From a virus (taxonomy: Duplodnaviria; Heunggongvirae; Uroviricota; Caudoviricetes), in IMG/VR virus record IMGVR_UViG_2703718852_000001: 20,765 bases of DNA. One strand, written 5' to 3'. Under the pieces are notes generated by a model. It searched no databases. It saw only the letters and a program-made list of their open reading frames with translations, and was not told where the DNA came from. Within the stretch, counting starts at the first letter, position 1. The number at the start of each line of letters is the position of its first letter. Positions 20-6,165 of this stretch are shown here, one piece after another. Both the position numbers and the translations under genes were made by a program.

Positions 20-1315
20 TTAATTTTTCATTGCTTCGTTATGGGGCATGGTTGGGGCAAACTCGCTTAACTGTGTATTTAACAAAGCTACCTGTGCATT
101 ATTGTTTTCAGACATCCATTTTCCGTATACCTGAAATACCATTTGCGCATCTGCATGGCCCATCTGGTTTGCTATAAATGCCGGGTTAGCACCAGCTGTC
201 AGCGACCAGCAGGCATAAGTATGTCTCGACTGATATGATTTTCGATGGCGGAGTCCGGCACGTTTTATCGCTGCGTCCCACATCTGCCTTATTGAGTCAA
301 CGGTAAAATGGTCACCATAATTTTTTACTCTCGCTGACACTTCAGGTTGAAAAACAAAGGTGCATTTTTGTTTTTCTGTTCTGCCATACTCTCTGAGGTG
401 AACATCAATGATATGCTCTTTGCTCAGTCTCGTTAATGTCATCTGACTCCGGAGAGCGTCGATTGCTGGCTTAATAAGATGAATGACCCGATTGGTTCCC
501 GCCTGTGTTTTTGGTACCGTGAAACGGTCTTTTGCTAAATTTCTCCTGATCATCATTGTTCCATTTTTCAGATCTATGTCCTCCCATCCAAGTGCACACA
601 GCTCACCAGGGCGAACTCCAGTATAAACAGAAACACACCATAAATTTTTTGCTTGCTGATTTCTGCACGCATCGATAAGACGGATAAATTCTTCCCGCGA
701 AAGAGGATCCGGAATGGTTCTTGATTCCTTTAATGGCGAGATCCCCTTAAACGGATTATCTGCCAGGTAACCGTTATCAACACCAAACTGGAACACGGCG
801 TTAAGATTTGTCATGTAATTATTTACAGTTACAGCCGATCTCCCTGGTTGTGTAACAATATAGTTACTTTTGGGGATCTGGTATCCAGTCAGTAACTCTT
901 TACGAACCTCCAGTAATTTTTCTTTATTAATCGATGAGGCAAGATTTTTTTCACCGATTATGCTCAGGATATTTTTGATGACGGCACGGTATGTGTTGAG
1001 TGATGTTTTGGCGACTTCAGTTTCTTTCAGTGCCAGAAATTTTTCAGCCAGTTCTTTTATGGTTAAATCTTGTCGGGCCTCACCAAATTTTTCCAGATTG
1101 CGTGAGGAGGGAAACTGTTTTGCATAGTCGAAAACACCAGTTTTTATTGCGTAACAAACAGAGGAGCGTAGTTCACCTGCAACGCGCCTGTTTTTTGCTG
1201 TGTCAGGAACCCCCAGATTTTCCCTGACTCTTACGTCTTTATAAACAAACCAGATACGTAATTTCCCTCCATGGTTTTCCACGCCTGTCGGATATTTCAT
1301 TTCAACTTCTCTCAT
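20..1315 (-). CDS. Phage tyrosine integrase (site-specific recombinase), 431 aa
   Basis: ORF track 20..1315 minus. C-terminal tyrosine-recombinase signature readable in the translation (..SRHTYACW.., ..QMGHAD.., ..VYGKW..) and an N-terminal arm-type domain (KYPTGVENHGGKLRIWF). Sits at the prophage edge, transcribed outward, as lambda int does. Alternative start at the second Met (coordinate 1300). Confidence 0.85.
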   Translation of the reverse strand: MREVEMKYPTGVENHGGKLRIWFVYKDVRVRENLGVPDTAKNRRVAGELRSSVCYAIKTGVFDYAKQFPSSRNLEKFGEARQDLTIKELAEKFLALKETEVAKTSLNTYRAVIKNILSIIGEKNLASSINKEKLLEVRKELLTGYQIPKSNYIVTQPGRSAVTVNNYMTNLNAVFQFGVDNGYLADNPFKGISPLKESRTIPDPLSREEFIRLIDACRNQQAKNLWCVSVYTGVRPGELCALGWEDIDLKNGTMMIRRNLAKDRFTVPKTQAGTNRVIHLIKPAIDALRSQMTLTRLSKEHIIDVHLREYGRTEKQKCTFVFQPEVSARVKNYGDHFTVDSIRQMWDAAIKRAGLRHRKSYQSRHTYACWSLTAGANPAFIANQMGHADAQMVFQVYGKWMSENNNAQVALLNTQLSEFAPTMPHNEAMKN

Positions 1316-1334
1316 TAGTTAGTGTGGCTTTTAG

Positions 1335-1619
1335 TCAAGTAAGATGACGTCTTGGTCTCGCTGATGCCTGGCGCTCAATCCAGCGATCAATTTCTTCCAG
1401 GTTGTAAAAGCATGGACTGTTATCCCATGGCATACCGTCATGAGCGACATGCTTATATTCCCTTCCTTCCATAAACGATTTTTCCCGGGCCTTTTTTAAC
1501 GTACCTTTTTTTATTCCTTTCAGCGCAATTAACTGCTCTTCGGATACGCGGTGGAAGTGCTGCTGATGTCGAATCCTAGCGTGATGACTATGAAGCGGGA
1601 AAAACTCCGGTCGAAGCAT
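1335..1619 (-). CDS. Putative excisionase-like small protein (xis position), 94 aa or shorter
   Basis: ORF ends 19 nt upstream of the int start on the same strand, the slot xis occupies in lambdoid phages. Contains ..EGREYKHV.., reminiscent of the lambda Xis DGREY wing. Function is inferred; the true start may be an internal Met. Confidence 0.35.
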   Translation of the reverse strand: MLRPEFFPLHSHHARIRHQQHFHRVSEEQLIALKGIKKGTLKKAREKSFMEGREYKHVAHDGMPWDNSPCFYNLEEIDRWIERQASARPRRHLT

Positions 1620-1669
1620 ATTGTGATGAGTGGGGCGATGAATGAGCGAGATTAATTATCAGGAAGGGC

Positions 1670-1929
1670 ATGAAACGGCGGGGCAAGCAAAACCAGTGGC
1701 ATGGCGATATCGCTACGTGAAAAAAGGCGTTACGGACTTTCAGGGGAAGTAGTGGTCTGGTGACTGGAAATATGTACCGAAAAAAGAGGATTGTAACGAC
1801 AGGCCGAACTATCAAATTCAGGCCTTATTCACTGCCTCACCAGTCCCAGTTACATCAGAAGAACTGGTTAAAGCTGTGCACTTTTATGAACAACTAAAAC
1901 GCGAAAATCCACCAACATCCGGCAACTAG
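1670..1929 (+). pseudogene. Decayed gene remnant (serial frameshifts, no usable start for the longest frame)
   Basis: Three consecutive short open frames: ATG 1670 to TGA 1720, ATG 1701 to TGA 1763, and a start-less 58-codon frame 1753..1929 ending ..EELVKAVHFYEQLKRENPPTSGN. Consistent with a frameshifted pseudogene. Confidence 0.2.
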
Positions 1930-2183
1930 ATTAATGGATTAACTATGTCGGTTAAACGACCAGCCAACTGAAAAAGCGGAAACCTGATTACAGGTTGCCA
2001 GATAAGGCAATGAGCTACCTGGCGCGGAACGGACTGATAAGTATGGGGAATGTTTTACGATGAACCTTTAGACTAAAGAGTTTGTAACGCTATGTAAGTG
2101 ATTTTTTCTGGTTTAGATATTTATATGTCCGGCCAAATTGAGGTGTGTTTAAATGTAATTGCACATTGATTGTAGGAGGAATA

Positions 2184-2363
2184 ATGAAAAACGCATTGCA
2201 GTTTTTGTTTGTTGCGTTCTGGTTGTTCGCATCATGTATGCCCATCATCTTCACAGCAAGGTATATGGAAAAAGTTGATGTTTTGATATTAATATTTGGA
2301 TATATAAATGCCCTTTTTTTAGGGGTGTTCATGGCGGTCATGTGCATTGAATACTGGCGGTAA
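2184..2363 (+). CDS. Small hydrophobic (predicted two-helix membrane) protein, 59 aa
   Basis: Internal ATG at 2184 of track ORF 2145..2363, preceded by AGGAGG at 2174-2179. Translation MKNALQFLFVAFWLFASCMPIIFTARYMEKVDVLILIFGYINALFLGVFMAVMCIEYWR has two hydrophobic stretches. Lies in an AT-rich segment. Confidence 0.45.
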   Translation: MKNALQFLFVAFWLFASCMPIIFTARYMEKVDVLILIFGYINALFLGVFMAVMCIEYWR

Positions 2364-2559
2364 ATACAGCGAACTCCATTGGTTTAGTTGGATATTTACT
2401 GTGCTGGACAAAAACGGTTTGCGGGGAAATCTTAGTTAAGTAGAATGACTGCGGGTGCTTGAGGCTATCTGCCTCGGGCATGGACACCAACGGCAGATAG
2501 AGAAAAGCCCCAGTTAACATTACGCGTCCTGCAAGACGCTTAACATTAATCTGAGGCCA

Positions 2560-4260
2560 ATTTCATGCTAGACACATGTAGGTTAGCCTCTTACGTGCCG
2601 AAAGGCACGGAGAAGCAGGCTATTGTTAACACCAAGCTGTAATGTCCCCTTTGAACCATTCTAAAATGTCCCCAGACAATTCTCTGGGGGATTTTTCATG
2701 ATCAAAGAGACTGTTACGATGAGTCATAAGGAACTCCACCGACTTCAGATTATTCAGGAACAAGCTGCGGCACGCATTGGCATTTCTATTCGGCAGGTTA
2801 AACGTCTGGTGCAACGGTATAGAAATGAAGGGCCTTCTGGTCTGGTTTCCCACCGACGTGGAAAGCGTCCTAATAATTCCTTTTCTACTGAATTCAGAGC
2901 AACAGTAATTTCACTCCTCAAAGGCCGTTACGCTGATTTTGGACCTACGTTTGCGTGCGAAAAATTGCGCGAGATACACGGTTTATCTTTATCCGTTGAA
3001 ACTCTCAGAAAGTGGATGATAGAAGAGGGGTTATGGCGTGAACGCCGTCGTAAAATTGCCCGTATATATCAACGCCGCATGCGACGACCATCTTACGGTG
3101 AACTGATCCAGATTGATGGCTCACCTCATGACTGGTTTGAAAATCGAGGCCCCAGATGTACACTGATCGTTTTCATTGATGATGCCACCAGTGCGTTGAT
3201 GGCGTTGCGTTTTGTGCCTGCTGAAACAACCCGGGCTTACATGGAAACCCTCCGGGGTTACCTTAATGATCATGGCGTACCGCTCGCTCTCTACTCTGAT
3301 AGACACAGTATATTCAGGGTAAATAACCCAGAGCGGGAAGGTGAGCTGACCCAGTTCACTCGTGCGATAAAGACACTGGGCATCGAGCCAATCCATGCCA
3401 ACAGCCCGCAGGCAAAAGGGCGGGTAGAGCGCGCCAATCAGACACTACAGGACAGGCTGGTCAAAGAAATGCGGCTTCAGAATATCAGTGATATTGAAAC
3501 AGCAAATGCATGGTTGCCGACCTTTATTGAAGCCTATAACAACCGGTTCGCTACGTCGCCTCGTACTACTGATAATGCTCATCTTGATGTGCACCATTCT
3601 GAAGAGGAACTGGGTTATATCTTCAGCCTACAGGCGAAGCGCGTTCTGTCTAAAAATCTCACTTTCCAGTACAAAAGCAGTGCGTTTCAGGTACGCAGTG
3701 AGGGCCGGGGATATCGACTTAGGCATTCGGTTGTTACTGTATGCGAGAACTTTGACGGTGAAATTAACGTTCTGTATGACGGGAAAGCGCTGGGCTGGGA
3801 AAAGTATGTTGATGGCCCGGAGCCTATACCACTGGATGATGAAAAGAGTGTCCATGAACGAGTGGATAATGCCCGTATTGATTTACGCTCAAAATACTAT
3901 GTTAAACCTAAAGCTGACCATCCCTGGCTTACGCGCCGAACGCAAAGTCATCAGCAAGTTAAGCCCCCGAAGTTACCTAAAAAGAAGCCTGATCCCGATA
4001 AAAAAGATTGAAACCAAGATCGATTCGGTTGAGTGCATATCCATTCATAGGGTAGATTCTTAAGTCGCGTTTCTGGTGTTCATTTTCGGGTGGTTTGTTA
4101 CTTGTTTTACCGGGGATATGCCAGAAACGCGCTGAGTCAGTCTGGGCGGTGCGCGTAATGAGGCGTTATGGTAAATAGCCTATGCTAATGTCCGCTAAGA
4201 GCAAGAAGCGGAAGTTGGCAGTTTTGTGGACTGTCCCCACAAAAGTGACTACAGAAATAG
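2560..4260 (+). mobile_element. Insertion sequence carrying the IS481-like transposase; ends not resolved
   Basis: Single transposase ORF with flanking non-coding DNA; I could not identify convincing terminal inverted repeats or a target duplication by eye. Bounds are approximate. Confidence 0.3.
2698..4011 (+). CDS. DDE transposase, IS481-like (retroviral-integrase-type catalytic core), 437 aa
   Basis: Track ORF 2698..4011. N-terminal HTH region (..ISIRQVKRLVQRYRNEGPSGLVSHRRGKRP..) followed by DDE-type motifs (..QIDGSPHDW.., ..LYSDRHSIF.., ..ANSPQAKGRVERANQTL..), as in IS481/IS3-type transposases. Confidence 0.85.
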   Translation: MIKETVTMSHKELHRLQIIQEQAAARIGISIRQVKRLVQRYRNEGPSGLVSHRRGKRPNNSFSTEFRATVISLLKGRYADFGPTFACEKLREIHGLSLSVETLRKWMIEEGLWRERRRKIARIYQRRMRRPSYGELIQIDGSPHDWFENRGPRCTLIVFIDDATSALMALRFVPAETTRAYMETLRGYLNDHGVPLALYSDRHSIFRVNNPEREGELTQFTRAIKTLGIEPIHANSPQAKGRVERANQTLQDRLVKEMRLQNISDIETANAWLPTFIEAYNNRFATSPRTTDNAHLDVHHSEEELGYIFSLQAKRVLSKNLTFQYKSSAFQVRSEGRGYRLRHSVVTVCENFDGEINVLYDGKALGWEKYVDGPEPIPLDDEKSVHERVDNARIDLRSKYYVKPKADHPWLTRRTQSHQQVKPPKLPKKKPDPDKKD

Positions 4261-4404
4261 TTGCAATTCATAATTGATCATGGGTTGTCAGTTAAACTCG
4301 TGGCGATTTAAATAGACTAATTGGGAGTGCGTCCATTACTTATATCTTGTAATGTTAACTATCAGAAATGATACAAAGATAATATGTCTTTAAAGAAAAG
4401 GCTG

Positions 4405-4433
4405 ATGGCGAAAAGTGGCCCGATGAGGGCCAC
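4405..4433 (-). terminator. Intrinsic terminator downstream of flxA
   Basis: Perfect hairpin GTGGCCC-GATGA-GGGCCAC (4415-4433), followed on the minus strand by UUUUCGCC, 15 nt past the flxA stop. Confidence 0.5.
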
Positions 4434-4447
4434 AATACGGCTGTCAC

Positions 4448-4780
4448 TTAGACGTAAATATCAATGGTGCCAGCGGTATTTGTATCGTCTTTTTTCTCTT
4501 CTTTTTTATCAGGCTGAACTGTCGCGTCTTCATTCTTTTTCTCTGCCTGCTGCCTTAACAACTGCTCCAGTTGAGCCCAGAGGCTTTCAATTTGCTTCTG
4601 TACCAATGCAGCCATTTCTTTTTTCTGCTGTGTCGTCATCCCCTCTTCCGATGAGATTTTCCCAAGCTTTTCAGTCAGCACCTGAATTTGTCTTGTGATT
4701 TTGGCTATTTCTGATGTTCCTTCCGGGGCGGAGTTGTTTGAAATAACGGTTGAGGTATTTCCCTGAATTGTGACAGACAT
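4448..4780 (-). CDS. flxA: FlxA, FliA-regulated protein, 110 aa
   Basis: Track ORF 4448..4780 minus (MSVTIQGNTSTVISNN..., acidic/Lys-rich C-terminus). AAGGAG SD upstream; sigma-28 consensus promoter immediately upstream; synteny with ydfV-relBE as in Qin. Confidence 0.85.
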   Translation of the reverse strand: MSVTIQGNTSTVISNNSAPEGTSEIAKITRQIQVLTEKLGKISSEEGMTTQQKKEMAALVQKQIESLWAQLEQLLRQQAEKKNEDATVQPDKKEEKKDDTNTAGTIDIYV

Positions 4781-4803
4781 AGATTTCTCCTTTTAAAAAA
4801 GCA

Positions 4804-4830
4804 CTATCGGCATGCACAAAAAAATCTTTA
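4804..4830 (-). promoter_or_regulatory. Sigma-28 (FliA) class 3 flagellar-type promoter for flxA
   Basis: Minus strand reads TAAAGATT-N11-GCCGATAG, against the sigma-28 consensus TAAAGTTT-N11-GCCGATAA, positioned about 25-50 nt upstream of the flxA ATG. Confidence 0.6.
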
Positions 4831-4982
4831 ATCGTATTTCTTGTGTCATTAATTGTTTGATGTTCAGATTGTTTTCCTCGCGGGCTGGCGCGCCTCAGAA
4901 AGTAAAGCTTGTTGACAGGGGTAAACGTTCGGCAATAATTTTCTGCCGCATGCGGGTGTTGCATAAAACGTGTTACGTTCCT

Positions 4983-5288
4983 TTATCGACAGGTCAGGTC
5001 ACCGCTCACCCGCCGACGAGAAAGCAACACTGACATGCTAAAGCAAAAAATAGATGAATAAGTTGAGTTGTGCATATGTAGCCTGACCGTCACAAAGTAT
5101 ATGGTGTCTGTACCAGTAAGATGATGGCCGGACTCTTTAAAAACGAGCTGACCTGCACAATACAGGATGGACTTAGCAATGGCTGCTCCTGGCACAAAGC
5201 GGACAGTGATCACCGTTCTTACGACTACTTTCTGACTTCCTTCGTGACTTGCCCTAAGCATGTTGTAGTGCGATACTTGTAATGACAT
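4983..5288 (-). CDS. ydfV: Hypothetical protein (ydfV-like ORF), 101 aa; coding status doubtful
   Basis: Track ORF 4983..5288 minus. Its start codon lies inside the relBE operator palindrome, the sequence is low-complexity, and I saw no convincing SD. Confidence 0.3.
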   Translation of the reverse strand: MSLQVSHYNMLRASHEGSQKVVVRTVITVRFVPGAAIAKSILYCAGQLVFKESGHHLTGTDTIYFVTVRLHMHNSTYSSIFCFSMSVLLSRRRVSGDLTCR

Positions 5289-5301
5289 TTGTAATTACAA
5301 G
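5249..5301 (+). promoter_or_regulatory. relBE promoter and operator (relO)
   Basis: TTGCCC (5249-5254), 17-nt spacer, GATACT (5272-5277), overlapping the palindromic operator CTTGTAATGACATTTGTAATTACAAG (5276-5301) immediately upstream of relB. Confidence 0.7.
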
Positions 5302-5312
5302 AGGTGTAAGAC

Positions 5313-5552
5313 ATGGGTAGCATTAACCTGCGTATTGACGATGAACTTAAAGCGCGTTCTTACGCCGCGCTTGAAAAAATGGGTGTAACTCCTTCTGAAG
5401 CGCTTCGTCTCATGCTCGAGTATATCGCTGACAATGAACGCTTGCCGTTCAAACAGACACTCCTGAGTGATGAAGATGCTGAACTTGTGGAGATAGTGAA
5501 AGAACGGCTTCGTAATCCTAAGCCAGTACGTGTGACGCTGGATGAACTCTGA
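5313..5552 (+). CDS. relB: RelB antitoxin, 79 aa
   Basis: Translation MGSINLRIDDELKARSYAALEKMGVTPSEALRLMLEYIADNERLPFKQTLLSDEDAELVEIVKERLRNPKPVRVTLDEL recognised as RelB; stop overlaps the relE start (TGATG). Confidence 0.95.
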   Translation: MGSINLRIDDELKARSYAALEKMGVTPSEALRLMLEYIADNERLPFKQTLLSDEDAELVEIVKERLRNPKPVRVTLDEL

Positions 5553-5839
5553 TGGCGTATTTTCTGGATTTTGACGAGCGGGCACTAAAGGAATGGCGAA
5601 AGCTGGGCTCGACGGTACGTGAACAGTTGAAAAAGAAGCTGGTTGAAGTACTTGAGTCACCCCGGATTGAAGCAAACAAGCTCCGTGGTATGCCTGATTG
5701 TTACAAGATTAAGCTCCGGTCTTCAGGCTATCGCCTTGTATACCAGGTTATAGACGAGAAAGTTGTCGTTTTCGTGATTTCTGTTGGGAAAAGAGAACGC
5801 TCGGAAGTATATAGCGAGGCGGTCAAACGCATTCTCTGA
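5552..5839 (+). CDS. relE: RelE mRNA-interferase toxin, 95 aa
   Basis: Translation MAYFLDFDERALKEWRKLGSTVREQLKKKLVEVLESPRIEANKLRGMPDCYKIKLRSSGYRLVYQVIDEKVVVFVISVGKRERSEVYSEAVKRIL recognised as RelE; translationally coupled to relB. Confidence 0.95.
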   Translation: MAYFLDFDERALKEWRKLGSTVREQLKKKLVEVLESPRIEANKLRGMPDCYKIKLRSSGYRLVYQVIDEKVVVFVISVGKRERSEVYSEAVKRIL

Positions 5840-5910
5840 ACCAAAGCATGACATCTCTGTTTCGCACCGAAGGTGACACTTCTGCTTTGCGTTGACAGGA
5901 GAAGCAGGCT

Positions 5911-6066
5911 ATGAAGCAGCAAAAGGCGATGTTAATCGCCCTGATCGTCATCTGTTTAACCGTCATAGTGACGGCACTGGTAACGAGGAAAGACCTCTGC
6001 GAGGTACGAATCCGAACCGGCCAGACGGAGGTCGCTGTCTTCACAGCTTACGAACCTGAGGAGTAA
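5911..6066 (+). CDS. hokD: HokD (RelF) Hok-family membrane toxin, 51 aa
   Basis: ATG 5911 to TAA 6064-6066, translation MKQQKAMLIALIVICLTVIVTALVTRKDLCEVRIRTGQTEVAVFTAYEPEE. Not in the ORF track (below 60 aa). Directly downstream of relE. Confidence 0.9.
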   Translation: MKQQKAMLIALIVICLTVIVTALVTRKDLCEVRIRTGQTEVAVFTAYEPEE

Positions 6067-6134
6067 GAGACCCGGCGGGGGAGAAATCCCTCGCCACCTC
6101 TGATGTGGCAGGCATCCTCAACGCACCCGCACTT

Positions 6135-6165
6135 AACCCGCTTCGGCGGGTTTTTGTTTTTATTT
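6135..6165 (+). terminator. Intrinsic terminator after hokD
   Basis: Hairpin CCCGC-TTCG-GCGGG (6137-6150) followed by TTTTTGTTTTTATTTT. Confidence 0.6.

Follow-up and report, generated by a model that had tools for sequence, protein, structure and literature searches.

A probable cargo transposon of the ISEsa1 lineage in the start region of a prophage hokD gene

Results

The locus and its features

The window analysed here is a 20,765-nucleotide sequence from the IMG/VR virus record IMGVR_UViG_2703718852_000001, which belongs to a Qin-like lambdoid prophage. We examined a gene for a DDE transposase in it, together with the DNA on both sides (Table 1). To its left lies a hok/sok leader; to its right follow a cer-like Xer site, flxA, ydfV, the toxin-antitoxin genes relB and relE and an open reading frame (ORF) for HokD. 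We consider it very probable that window 2624-5897 is one cargo transposon of 3,274 bp, a member of the ISEsa1 lineage in the IS1202 family of insertion sequences (ISs), that landed in the start region of hokD. The region singled out in a preliminary description, made from the sequence alone, held three things: the left part of this element, the hok leader and the cer-like site.

Table 1. Coordinates of features in and around the insertion in the window
Feature	Position	Strand	Sequence	Basis or remark
hok/sok leader, left half of target	2453-2623	+		Rfam RF01794, full-length, 104.1 bits (gathering score 59)
Upstream hairpin 1	2465-2473 / 2492-2500		CTATCTGCC / GGCAGATAG	
Upstream hairpin 2	2524-2539		GCGTCCTGCAAGACGC	
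Upstream hairpin 3	2595-2608		GTGCCGAAAGGCAC	
Target-site duplication, left copy	2609-2623	+	GGAGAAGCAGGCTAT	Exact direct repeat with 5898-5912; single in strain 1532MA (L003 3310-3325)
Left terminal inverted repeat (IRL)	2624-2649	+	TGTTAACACCAAGCTGTAATGTCCCC	Boundary set by empty site; holds first TGTCCCC
Two 19-bp subterminal direct repeats, 24-bp spacing	2631-2649, 2655-2673	+	ACCAAGCTGTAATGTCCCC, ACCATTCTAAAATGTCCCC	Repeat search
Stem-loop	2669-2690	+	TCCCCAGA...TCTGGGGG, then ATTTTTCATG	Terminator-like prediction and inverted repeat
ISEsa1-type (IS1202-family) DDE transposase, 437 aa	2698-4011	+		NF033594 and Pfam
cer-like Xer multimer-resolution site	4034-4176	+		Alignment with ColE1 cer
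cer-like core	4148-4176	+	GGTGCGCGTAA-TGAGGCG-TTATGGTAAAT	Unique in window; 0 of 100 shuffles matching
Variable cargo segment	4217-5184			Related elements differ here
flxA	4448-4780	-		FlxA by Pfam
ydfV	4983-5288	-		Mostly inside variable cargo segment
relB	5313-5552	+		PF04221 RelB, 112 bits
relE	5552-5839	+		PF05016 ParE_toxin, 51 bits
Right terminal inverted repeat (IRR)	5872-5897	-	TGTCAACGCAAAGCAGAAGTGTCACC (reverse complement)	Bounds all duplication-bearing relatives
Target-site duplication, right copy, 15 bp	5898-5912	+		Exact direct repeat
hokD ORF, right half of target	5911-6066	+		PF01848, 82.9 bits

An empty site, a target duplication and terminal inverted repeats bound a single insert

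The boundaries of the insert were set by the empty site of strain 1532MA (locus L003), where positions 2678-3325 correspond to window 1977-2623 and positions 3310-3572 to window 5897-6161. Because both flanks are contiguous in this strain, window 2624-5897 is one insert of 3,274 bp. Sixteen base pairs are common to the two flank matches and occur there in a single copy, and the hok/sok leader is contiguous with hokD. Comparison with genomes lacking the insertion had been proposed in the preliminary description as a way to find the empty site, and the site so located joins 2623 directly to 5898. Of 5,426 complete E. coli genomes, 4,033 have the reconstructed empty site in one uninterrupted piece, and 760 contain 80% or more of the unit. 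Of 79 matching phage records, that of PhiR42_1 is the only one to cover 80% or more of the query; it has the whole filled site at 100% identity, and the remaining records contain, among the matches listed, both flanks as adjacent pieces, which corresponds to the empty site.

The left copy of the duplication spans the Shine-Dalgarno sequence of hokD through the AT of its start codon. Inside the duplication, IRL matches the reverse complement of IRR at 19 of 26 positions, with TGTTAAC.../...GTTGACA tips. This comparison was made with the boundaries already fixed independently by the empty site, and among random pairs of 26-mers from the window a match of that level has a probability of about 5e-6. 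The IRL sequence was found at more than 80 loci, and 23 of its 26 positions are conserved in relatives from Hahella (described below). A scan of 2650-6100 returned 5872-5897 as the top right-end match (19/26 to IRL and 19/26 to the right end of the Hahella IS) and nothing comparable near 4190-4232. The preliminary description had reported neither terminal inverted repeats nor a target duplication; both exist, and their right-hand members lie outside the coordinates that it covered.

Several other positions for the right end were considered and rejected. There is no end-like match at the ISfinder position (about 4205-4232), and the internal alternatives at 5153-5178 (17/26) and 4112 (16/26) are not backed by a duplication. 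The sequence at 5153-5178, CTGCACAATACAGGATGGACTTAGCA, has its 17 matches to IRL read in reverse complement; it stops a few nucleotides short of the right-hand module boundary at 5185 and could be a chance resemblance or a decayed internal end.

The first of the two 19-bp subterminal repeats is the inner part of IRL; the second closely resembles the inner part of the Hahella IRR. A matching pair, GCAAAGCAGAAGTGTCACC and GCGAAACAGAGATGTCATG, is present at the right end (5847-5890) at the same offsets, and these paired repeats may be transposase-binding sites. Both ends have the form described for the IS1202 family, TGT tips with a second conserved block near position 20 (bioRxiv 2022.12.17.520857): they read TGTTAAC...TGTCCCC and TGTCAAC...TGTCACC, with TGTC at positions 20-23 of each.

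The motif TGTCCCC, to which the preliminary description had drawn attention, does occur exactly three times in the window, always on the plus strand (2643-2649, 2667-2673 and 4232-4238). Its count is not above chance (1.64 expected; three or more in 26 of 100 shuffles). It had also been suggested that canonical repeats and a duplication would make the copies incidental. The repeats and the duplication were found, yet the two left copies belong to the left end, one in each 19-bp repeat. The third lies in a hairpin with an 8-bp stem (4222-4244) in the variable cargo segment, has no counterpart in the ends of other elements and looks incidental. A relic of another left end was rejected for this copy: positions 4213-4238 match IRL at 15 of 26 positions, which is not significant because seven of the matches are the motif itself.

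The second TGTCCCC also forms the 5' arm of the stem-loop at 2669-2690, the 3' arm of which overlaps the likely ribosome-binding site of the transposase gene. This structure may shield the gene from read-through transcription out of the hok promoter.

The transposase is of the ISEsa1 type and lacks nine conserved codons

The DDE transposase gene of a mobile element was correctly recognized in the preliminary description, which called it IS481-like. We rejected the IS481 family: the corresponding model (NF033577) gives only 125.7 bits against a cut-off of 224, whereas NF033594 (NCBIfam ISNCY_2, IS1202/ISEsa1-type) gives 456.4 bits against a cut-off of 250 and is matched over profile positions 7-365 of 368. 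Pfam domains HTH_32, HTH_29 and HTH_28 are found at the N-terminus, together with a fragment of the rve_3 integrase core. The DDE triad and the Q at +7 after the E are intact, and the motifs IQIDGS, LYSDRH and GRVERANQTLQ are conserved in an alignment with relatives. Near-identical genes carry the RefSeq label 'IS1202-like element ISEsa1 family transposase'. Copies with an ISEsa1-family annotation from NCBI share 98-99% identity with window 2624-4216. ISEsa1 itself has an ISfinder entry (Cronobacter/Enterobacter sakazakii) with an ORF of 439 aa, which fits the 446-aa ORF of intact copies if that is taken to start at the second Met.

Just before the helix-turn-helix, the window transposase lacks nine codons (QESINRHIT) through a 27-bp in-frame deletion. 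These residues are kept in every relative examined, from the 446-aa plasmid copies to Chlamydiae, and alleles with and without the deletion are both present in prophages. With nine conserved codons deleted beside the helix-turn-helix, the window copy probably does not supply a fully active enzyme and is probably not autonomous. The last 49 codons of the gene (3862-4011) correspond to the annotated 'ydfW'.

The preliminary description had considered that the element might be atypical or partially deleted, and both hold, since it carries cargo, this copy has the 27-bp deletion and the left 1.2 kb is lost in K-12 strains.

The cargo includes a cer-like Xer site and relBE

By its sequence, 4034-4176 is a cer-like Xer recombination site, and it may have a role as one. 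Its XerD arm, TTATGGTAAAT, is identical to that of ColE1 cer (11/11), and its XerC arm matches those of dif and psi at 10 of 11 positions (arm sequences of dif, cer and psi from PMC2410131). About 110-150 bp upstream of the core align with the ColE1 cer region and with sites of small Col-type plasmids, thousands of which match window 4066-4178. The site has 11-bp arms, a centre within the usual 6-8 bp and upstream accessory homology. The 11-bp inverted repeat noted at 4066-4076/4121-4131 in the preliminary description is exact, and lies inside this site of the element; ColE1 has an equivalent inverted repeat of the same length and spacing. At 4034-4049 the block TGCATATCCATTCATA aligns with ColE1 TGCATAGGTATTCATA, which we take to be the ArgR box of cer. 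Besides the XerD arm, the dif/psi-like XerC arm, the ArgR-box-like block and the inverted repeat, the two sites share a TTTTCGGGTGGTTTGTT block. They differ in the central region, which is 8 bp in ColE1 cer and 7 bp in the window, and in their setting, as the window site lies in a transposon within a prophage, where resolution of plasmid dimers has no obvious role. A second Xer site that would bound the variable cargo, as in dif modules, was rejected because there is a single core site in the window.

The genes relB and relE have the order of a type II toxin-antitoxin module and overlap by 1 nt at 5552. They form a conserved right-hand module, 96-99% identical in all ISEsa1-type elements examined. 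IS1202 members are typically single-gene elements of 1.3-2 kb; the window unit, at 3,274 bp, has five further genes, among them flxA, ydfV, relB and relE, as well as the Xer site. The terms cargo-carrying (transporter) IS or small transposon suit it better.

The insertion separates hokD from its leader

The match to RF01794 spans 2453-2624. The last three nucleotides of the model are the hok AUG; at 2622-2624 the window has AU|U instead, the final U being the first T of the element, and the insertion thus splits the hokD start codon (AT|G). The duplication restores a Shine-Dalgarno sequence and an ATG before the hokD ORF. In an intact hok locus the leader is followed directly by the Hok/Gef ORF; here the locus is disrupted, since the two halves are 3,274 bp apart. 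The hokD ORF lies 71 bp behind relE. Between the two no terminator-like site was predicted, and one was predicted after hokD at 6135-6152. This arrangement fits the report that relBEF is transcribed as one unit (Gotfredsen and Gerdes 1998, as cited in PMC5120126).

The three upstream hairpins of the preliminary description are present, some displaced by 1 nt from the coordinates given there. They are part of the hok leader of the target (RF01794, 104 bits), not of the element. The hairpin at 2524-2539 corresponds to a 16-nt insertion relative to the Rfam hok-leader model, in the loop of its second stem, and is flanked by the repeat TTAACATTA.

Related elements share both ends and differ in the middle

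Plasmids of Salmonella, Enterobacter and E. coli carry the whole unit too, about 99% identical, and its intact form there has 3,301 bp and the 446-aa transposase. It has inserted in a pndA-type hok gene of a Salmonella IncI plasmid (L007; duplication TGGAGGGGCTATGAT), in another hok gene of an Enterobacter IncF plasmid (L008; duplication GGAGAAGAAGGCCA) and, in the window, in prophage hokD (duplication GGAGAAGCAGGCTAT). These insertions are independent, because each duplication is local sequence.

Further elements were sought by scanning one genome per species for the same IRL and IRR. Those found measure 4,487, 4,600, 5,822, 6,092-6,093 and 7,320 bp, with duplications of 13-16 bp. At nine related enterobacterial sites the duplications are 13-16 bp long, and the 15 bp in the window fall within the 15-17 (or 18) bp expected of one subgroup of the IS1202 family. 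The elements have in common a left module with IRL, the transposase gene and the cer-like site (from element position 1 to roughly 1583-1593) and a right module with relBE and IRR (element positions 2562-3274). The segment between the modules differs; it consists of flxA and ydfV in the window, and in other elements its ORFs match a region of plasmid L002 annotated as a cytochrome b/b6-domain protein and a cation-diffusion-facilitator transporter. Further large cargo ORFs in some elements read as nested IS110- and IS30-type transposases.

The longest element is on the Enterobacter hormaechei plasmid pMS7884B (L088; NZ_CP022534.1, 105,917-118,759), where a span of 12,843 bp is bounded by the same IRL and IRR. 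Inside it are ncrABCY for nickel/cobalt, chrBA for chromate, a HupE/UreJ gene and relBE, and there is a hok gene to the right. Klebsiella, Enterobacter and Phytobacter have further plasmids with the left module of this element, at least 14 besides this one. It may be a metal-resistance transposon that has gone unrecognized.

The chromosome of Hahella sp. SMD15-11 (L028-L039 and L053) contains at least 12 copies of a plain, single-gene relative of 1,449 bp, with 62% amino acid identity. These have the same kind of ends and 15 to 17-bp duplications at diverse sites, and provide a useful reference for the ancestral, cargo-free form.

A relative with 71% identity (L040) has two adjoining ORFs of 163 and 88 aa beside IRR (element positions 3349-4094) where others have relBE. 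Read without a profile search, the longer would be a GNAT toxin and the shorter a DUF1778 antitoxin, and a toxin-antitoxin pair at the right end may be recurrent in the lineage.

Most junctions lie at the start of hok genes

To count insertion sites we took elements with an ISEsa1-type IRL at 0-1 mismatch. This gave 19 distinct junctions, and 14 of these fall at the Shine-Dalgarno sequence or ATG of hok-family genes. Among the 14, one element is in the opposite orientation and one is a second element in the regenerated target beside a first. The position of the junction shifts by 0-3 nt between sites. Seven different Hok proteins (PF01848) are encoded to the right of IRR, and both in the window and at six other loci the match to the Rfam hok-leader model stops exactly at IRL. 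In a hand count, CAA precedes the duplicated segment at 14 of 21 sites, Hahella included; at the hok loci a short GCC-N4-GGC hairpin precedes it as well. More diverged relatives do not use hok sites. A scan of IMG/VR for IRL mainly repeated the hokD insertion and yielded few new sites.

We read the preference for hok as a choice of target made by the transposase. One of the non-hok sites (L020 5837-5950) overlaps an Rfam match to isrO (58.8 bits, gathering score 42), a family of Hfq-binding small RNAs of Salmonella, so the same lineage has struck another small-RNA locus.

E. coli K-12 retains the right part of the element

In the Qin prophage of E. coli K-12, element positions 1204-3274 are present at 100% identity in the relB-relE-hokD (relBEF) region. 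K-12 keeps ydfW, the cer-like site, flxA, ydfV, relBE, IRR, the right copy of the duplication and hokD; it is without IRL, most of the transposase gene and the hok leader. That the left side was lost follows from the truncated ydfX, which abuts element position 1204, and the origin from a mobile element is therefore invisible from K-12 alone. Judged by this alignment, the K-12 relB-relE-hokD arrangement is the remnant of a transposon insertion.

Discussion

Proposed course of the insertion

We propose that the transposase would bind the paired 19-bp repeats inside imperfect terminal inverted repeats ending in TGT/ACA, and that staggered cuts about 15 bp apart in the target would give rise to the 15-bp duplication. 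The segment between the transposase gene and IRR, with the cer-like XerCD site, flxA, ydfV and the relBE addiction module, would be carried along as cargo. The cue for the target may be sequence or shape, that is, the GCC-N4-GGC hairpin together with the CAA immediately 5' of the duplicated 15 bp. Insertion into the translation-initiation region of prophage hokD, splitting AT|G, would have stranded the hok promoter, the mok/Sok control leader and its hairpins upstream at 2453-2623. Behind relE, hokD would then be co-transcribed as relB-relE-hokD, with consequences for its regulation.

Relation to ISEsa1 and the IS1202 family

The published ISEsa1, as defined in ISfinder, measures 1,609 bp and has a 15/22 inverted repeat; no duplication could be detected for it, and it was placed in a subgroup of its own (Harmer and Hall 2023; PMC10132070). 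In contrast, the units described here are flanked by duplications of 13-16 bp, and the right end of window-type units lies behind relBE. This suggests that the published right end was placed about 1.7 kb or more too early, which would explain why ISEsa1 was reported without a target duplication.

Subgroups of the IS1202 family with duplications of 5-6, 15-17 and 27-28 bp have been distinguished, one subgroup targeting Xer sites (Siguier et al., bioRxiv 2022.12.17.520857). With the ISTde1 subgroup (15-17-bp repeats) the window element shares the N-terminal helix-turn-helix, the DDE residues with a Q seven residues after the E, the TGT tips, the conserved block around position 20 and a duplication of about 15 bp. 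A preference for hok sites, as in the window lineage, has not been reported for the family. Elements of the ISAjo2/ISAba32 type, which belong to the same family, resemble the window lineage in their strong, oriented preference for a short functional plasmid site. They insert by pdif/xrs, 5 bp from the XerC arm, with 5-6-bp duplications, whereas the window lineage inserts at hok with about 15 bp; and while they land beside a Xer site, the window lineage carries a cer-like one internally.

Other explanations of the locus

The evidence for transposition is comparative throughout, and several observations weigh against our reading of the locus and its relatives. Harmer and Hall (2023; PMC10132070) list ISEsa1 at 1,609 bp with its own 15/22 inverted repeat. 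E. coli genomes nearly always have a single copy of the unit and, taken with the nine-codon deletion, this makes current activity of the window copy doubtful. The 12,843-bp copy on pMS7884B has no target duplication, and a non-hok site (L124) has only a 6-bp repeat and no proper duplication. Five of the 19 ISEsa1-type junctions lie outside hok loci, and the proportion at hok could be inflated by relatedness among the plasmids and prophages or by selection after insertion.

If the published definition is taken as it stands, ISEsa1 would be a plain 1.6-kb IS ending near 4205-4216, flxA, ydfV and relBE would be unrelated prophage genes and the repeat at 2609/5898 would be a coincidence. The sequence common to diverged variants does stop at element positions 1579-1593, as this explanation would have it. 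However, no target duplication was found for that definition in the same paper (PMC10132070), the best right end in 2650-6100 is the one at 5872-5897 with nothing like it near 4190-4232, and the whole 3.3-kb unit is found again between other flanks, with other duplications. The empty site, which joins 2623 directly to 5898, also contradicts this explanation, and we regard it as very unlikely. An ISEsa1 without a right end of its own could alternatively mobilize adjacent DNA in the one-ended manner of ISEcp1, through a fortuitous end behind relE, the cargo being neighbouring DNA. This would account for cargo lengths that give elements of 3.3 to 12.8 kb with a constant left module, for the small hairpin in which that module ends, and for a right module that is 96-99% identical where left modules differ by 10%, which fits a separate history. 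We nevertheless think it improbable: the same IRR is found in every element, with no variety of surrogate ends, and no relic of an older IRR was found directly after the transposase stop, where the match read by eye at 4009-4034 reaches 12/26 and is not conserved in variants. IRR looks ancestral rather than fortuitous, because 19 of its 26 positions agree with the right end of the cargo-free Hahella IS, with the TGTC blocks at the same offsets.

A view that dispenses with transposition has relBE and its neighbours entering hokD by plasmid recombination and spreading to other hok loci by homologous recombination through the hok flanks. Acquisition of relBE from plasmids and its integration into hokD have been proposed (Ramisetty and Santhosh 2016, as cited in PMC6379469), and hok loci are homologous to one another. 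Hybrid flanks also exist, as in an IMG/VR contig (L153) that is pnd-type on the left and hokD on the right; this suggests that two copies, each in a different hok locus, recombined. Against it, each site has its own 13-16 bp duplication of local sequence with both copies identical, the junctions shift by 0-3 nt and one insertion has the opposite orientation, and four non-hok sites (L012, L020, L040 and L080) also have duplications of 15-16 bp. Homologous recombination through hok flanks would not account for duplications that are specific to each site, and we give this view next to no credence. Insertion of a single cargo transposon remains the reading that we hold with high confidence for window 2624-5897.

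Broader significance

More tentatively, and with the balance of our judgement somewhat against it, the ISEsa1 lineage as a whole may consist of cargo transposons that recognize hok translation-initiation regions, unplug hok from its promoter and from Sok/mok, and place its ORF under relBE. They would bring a cer-like site with them and, in the larger versions, nickel/chromate resistance genes, and relBEF of K-12 would be a fossil of such an event. If so, one plasmid-stability system would be specialized to capture another. After the Xer-targeting elements, the IS1202 family would also gain a second example of a strong and oriented choice of target, here the control region of a toxin-antitoxin system.

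For E. coli K-12, relB-relE-hokD and the orphans ydfW, flxA and ydfV would be explained as parts of a single transposon insertion into hok. ISEsa1 would be redefined as the transposase module of elements of 3.3-12.8 kb, some with nickel/chromate resistance on clinical Enterobacter plasmids, and annotation pipelines currently miss such units. We found no literature in which ISEsa1 or IS1202 is connected to hok, or in which relBE and flxA are connected to a transposon, in a search that left out ISfinder, TnCentral and subscription journals; the redefined ends, the cargo architecture and the hok preference appear to be undescribed so far.

Additional observations

Tandem elements were seen at three loci (L006 2150-2260, L024 at about 7527 and L029 5929-8850), where an IRR is followed by a spacer of 10-17 bp and then the next IRL. 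The spacer is the target duplication (15-17 bp) in L006 and L029, and in L024 only 10 bp of the expected duplication are present. The partners in L006 are different variants, 99% and 90% identical to the window. This suggests repeated insertion into a regenerated target and not dimers of a single element.

Window 20-1619 encodes a phage integrase (431 aa, minus strand) and a DUF1233 excisionase, which lie only some 1 kb away from the hok leader. The matching position in PhiR42_1 and strain W5-6 has replication and DUF977/methyltransferase genes. Because the gene content of this region differs from theirs, the window prophage has been rearranged or deleted upstream of about 1545.

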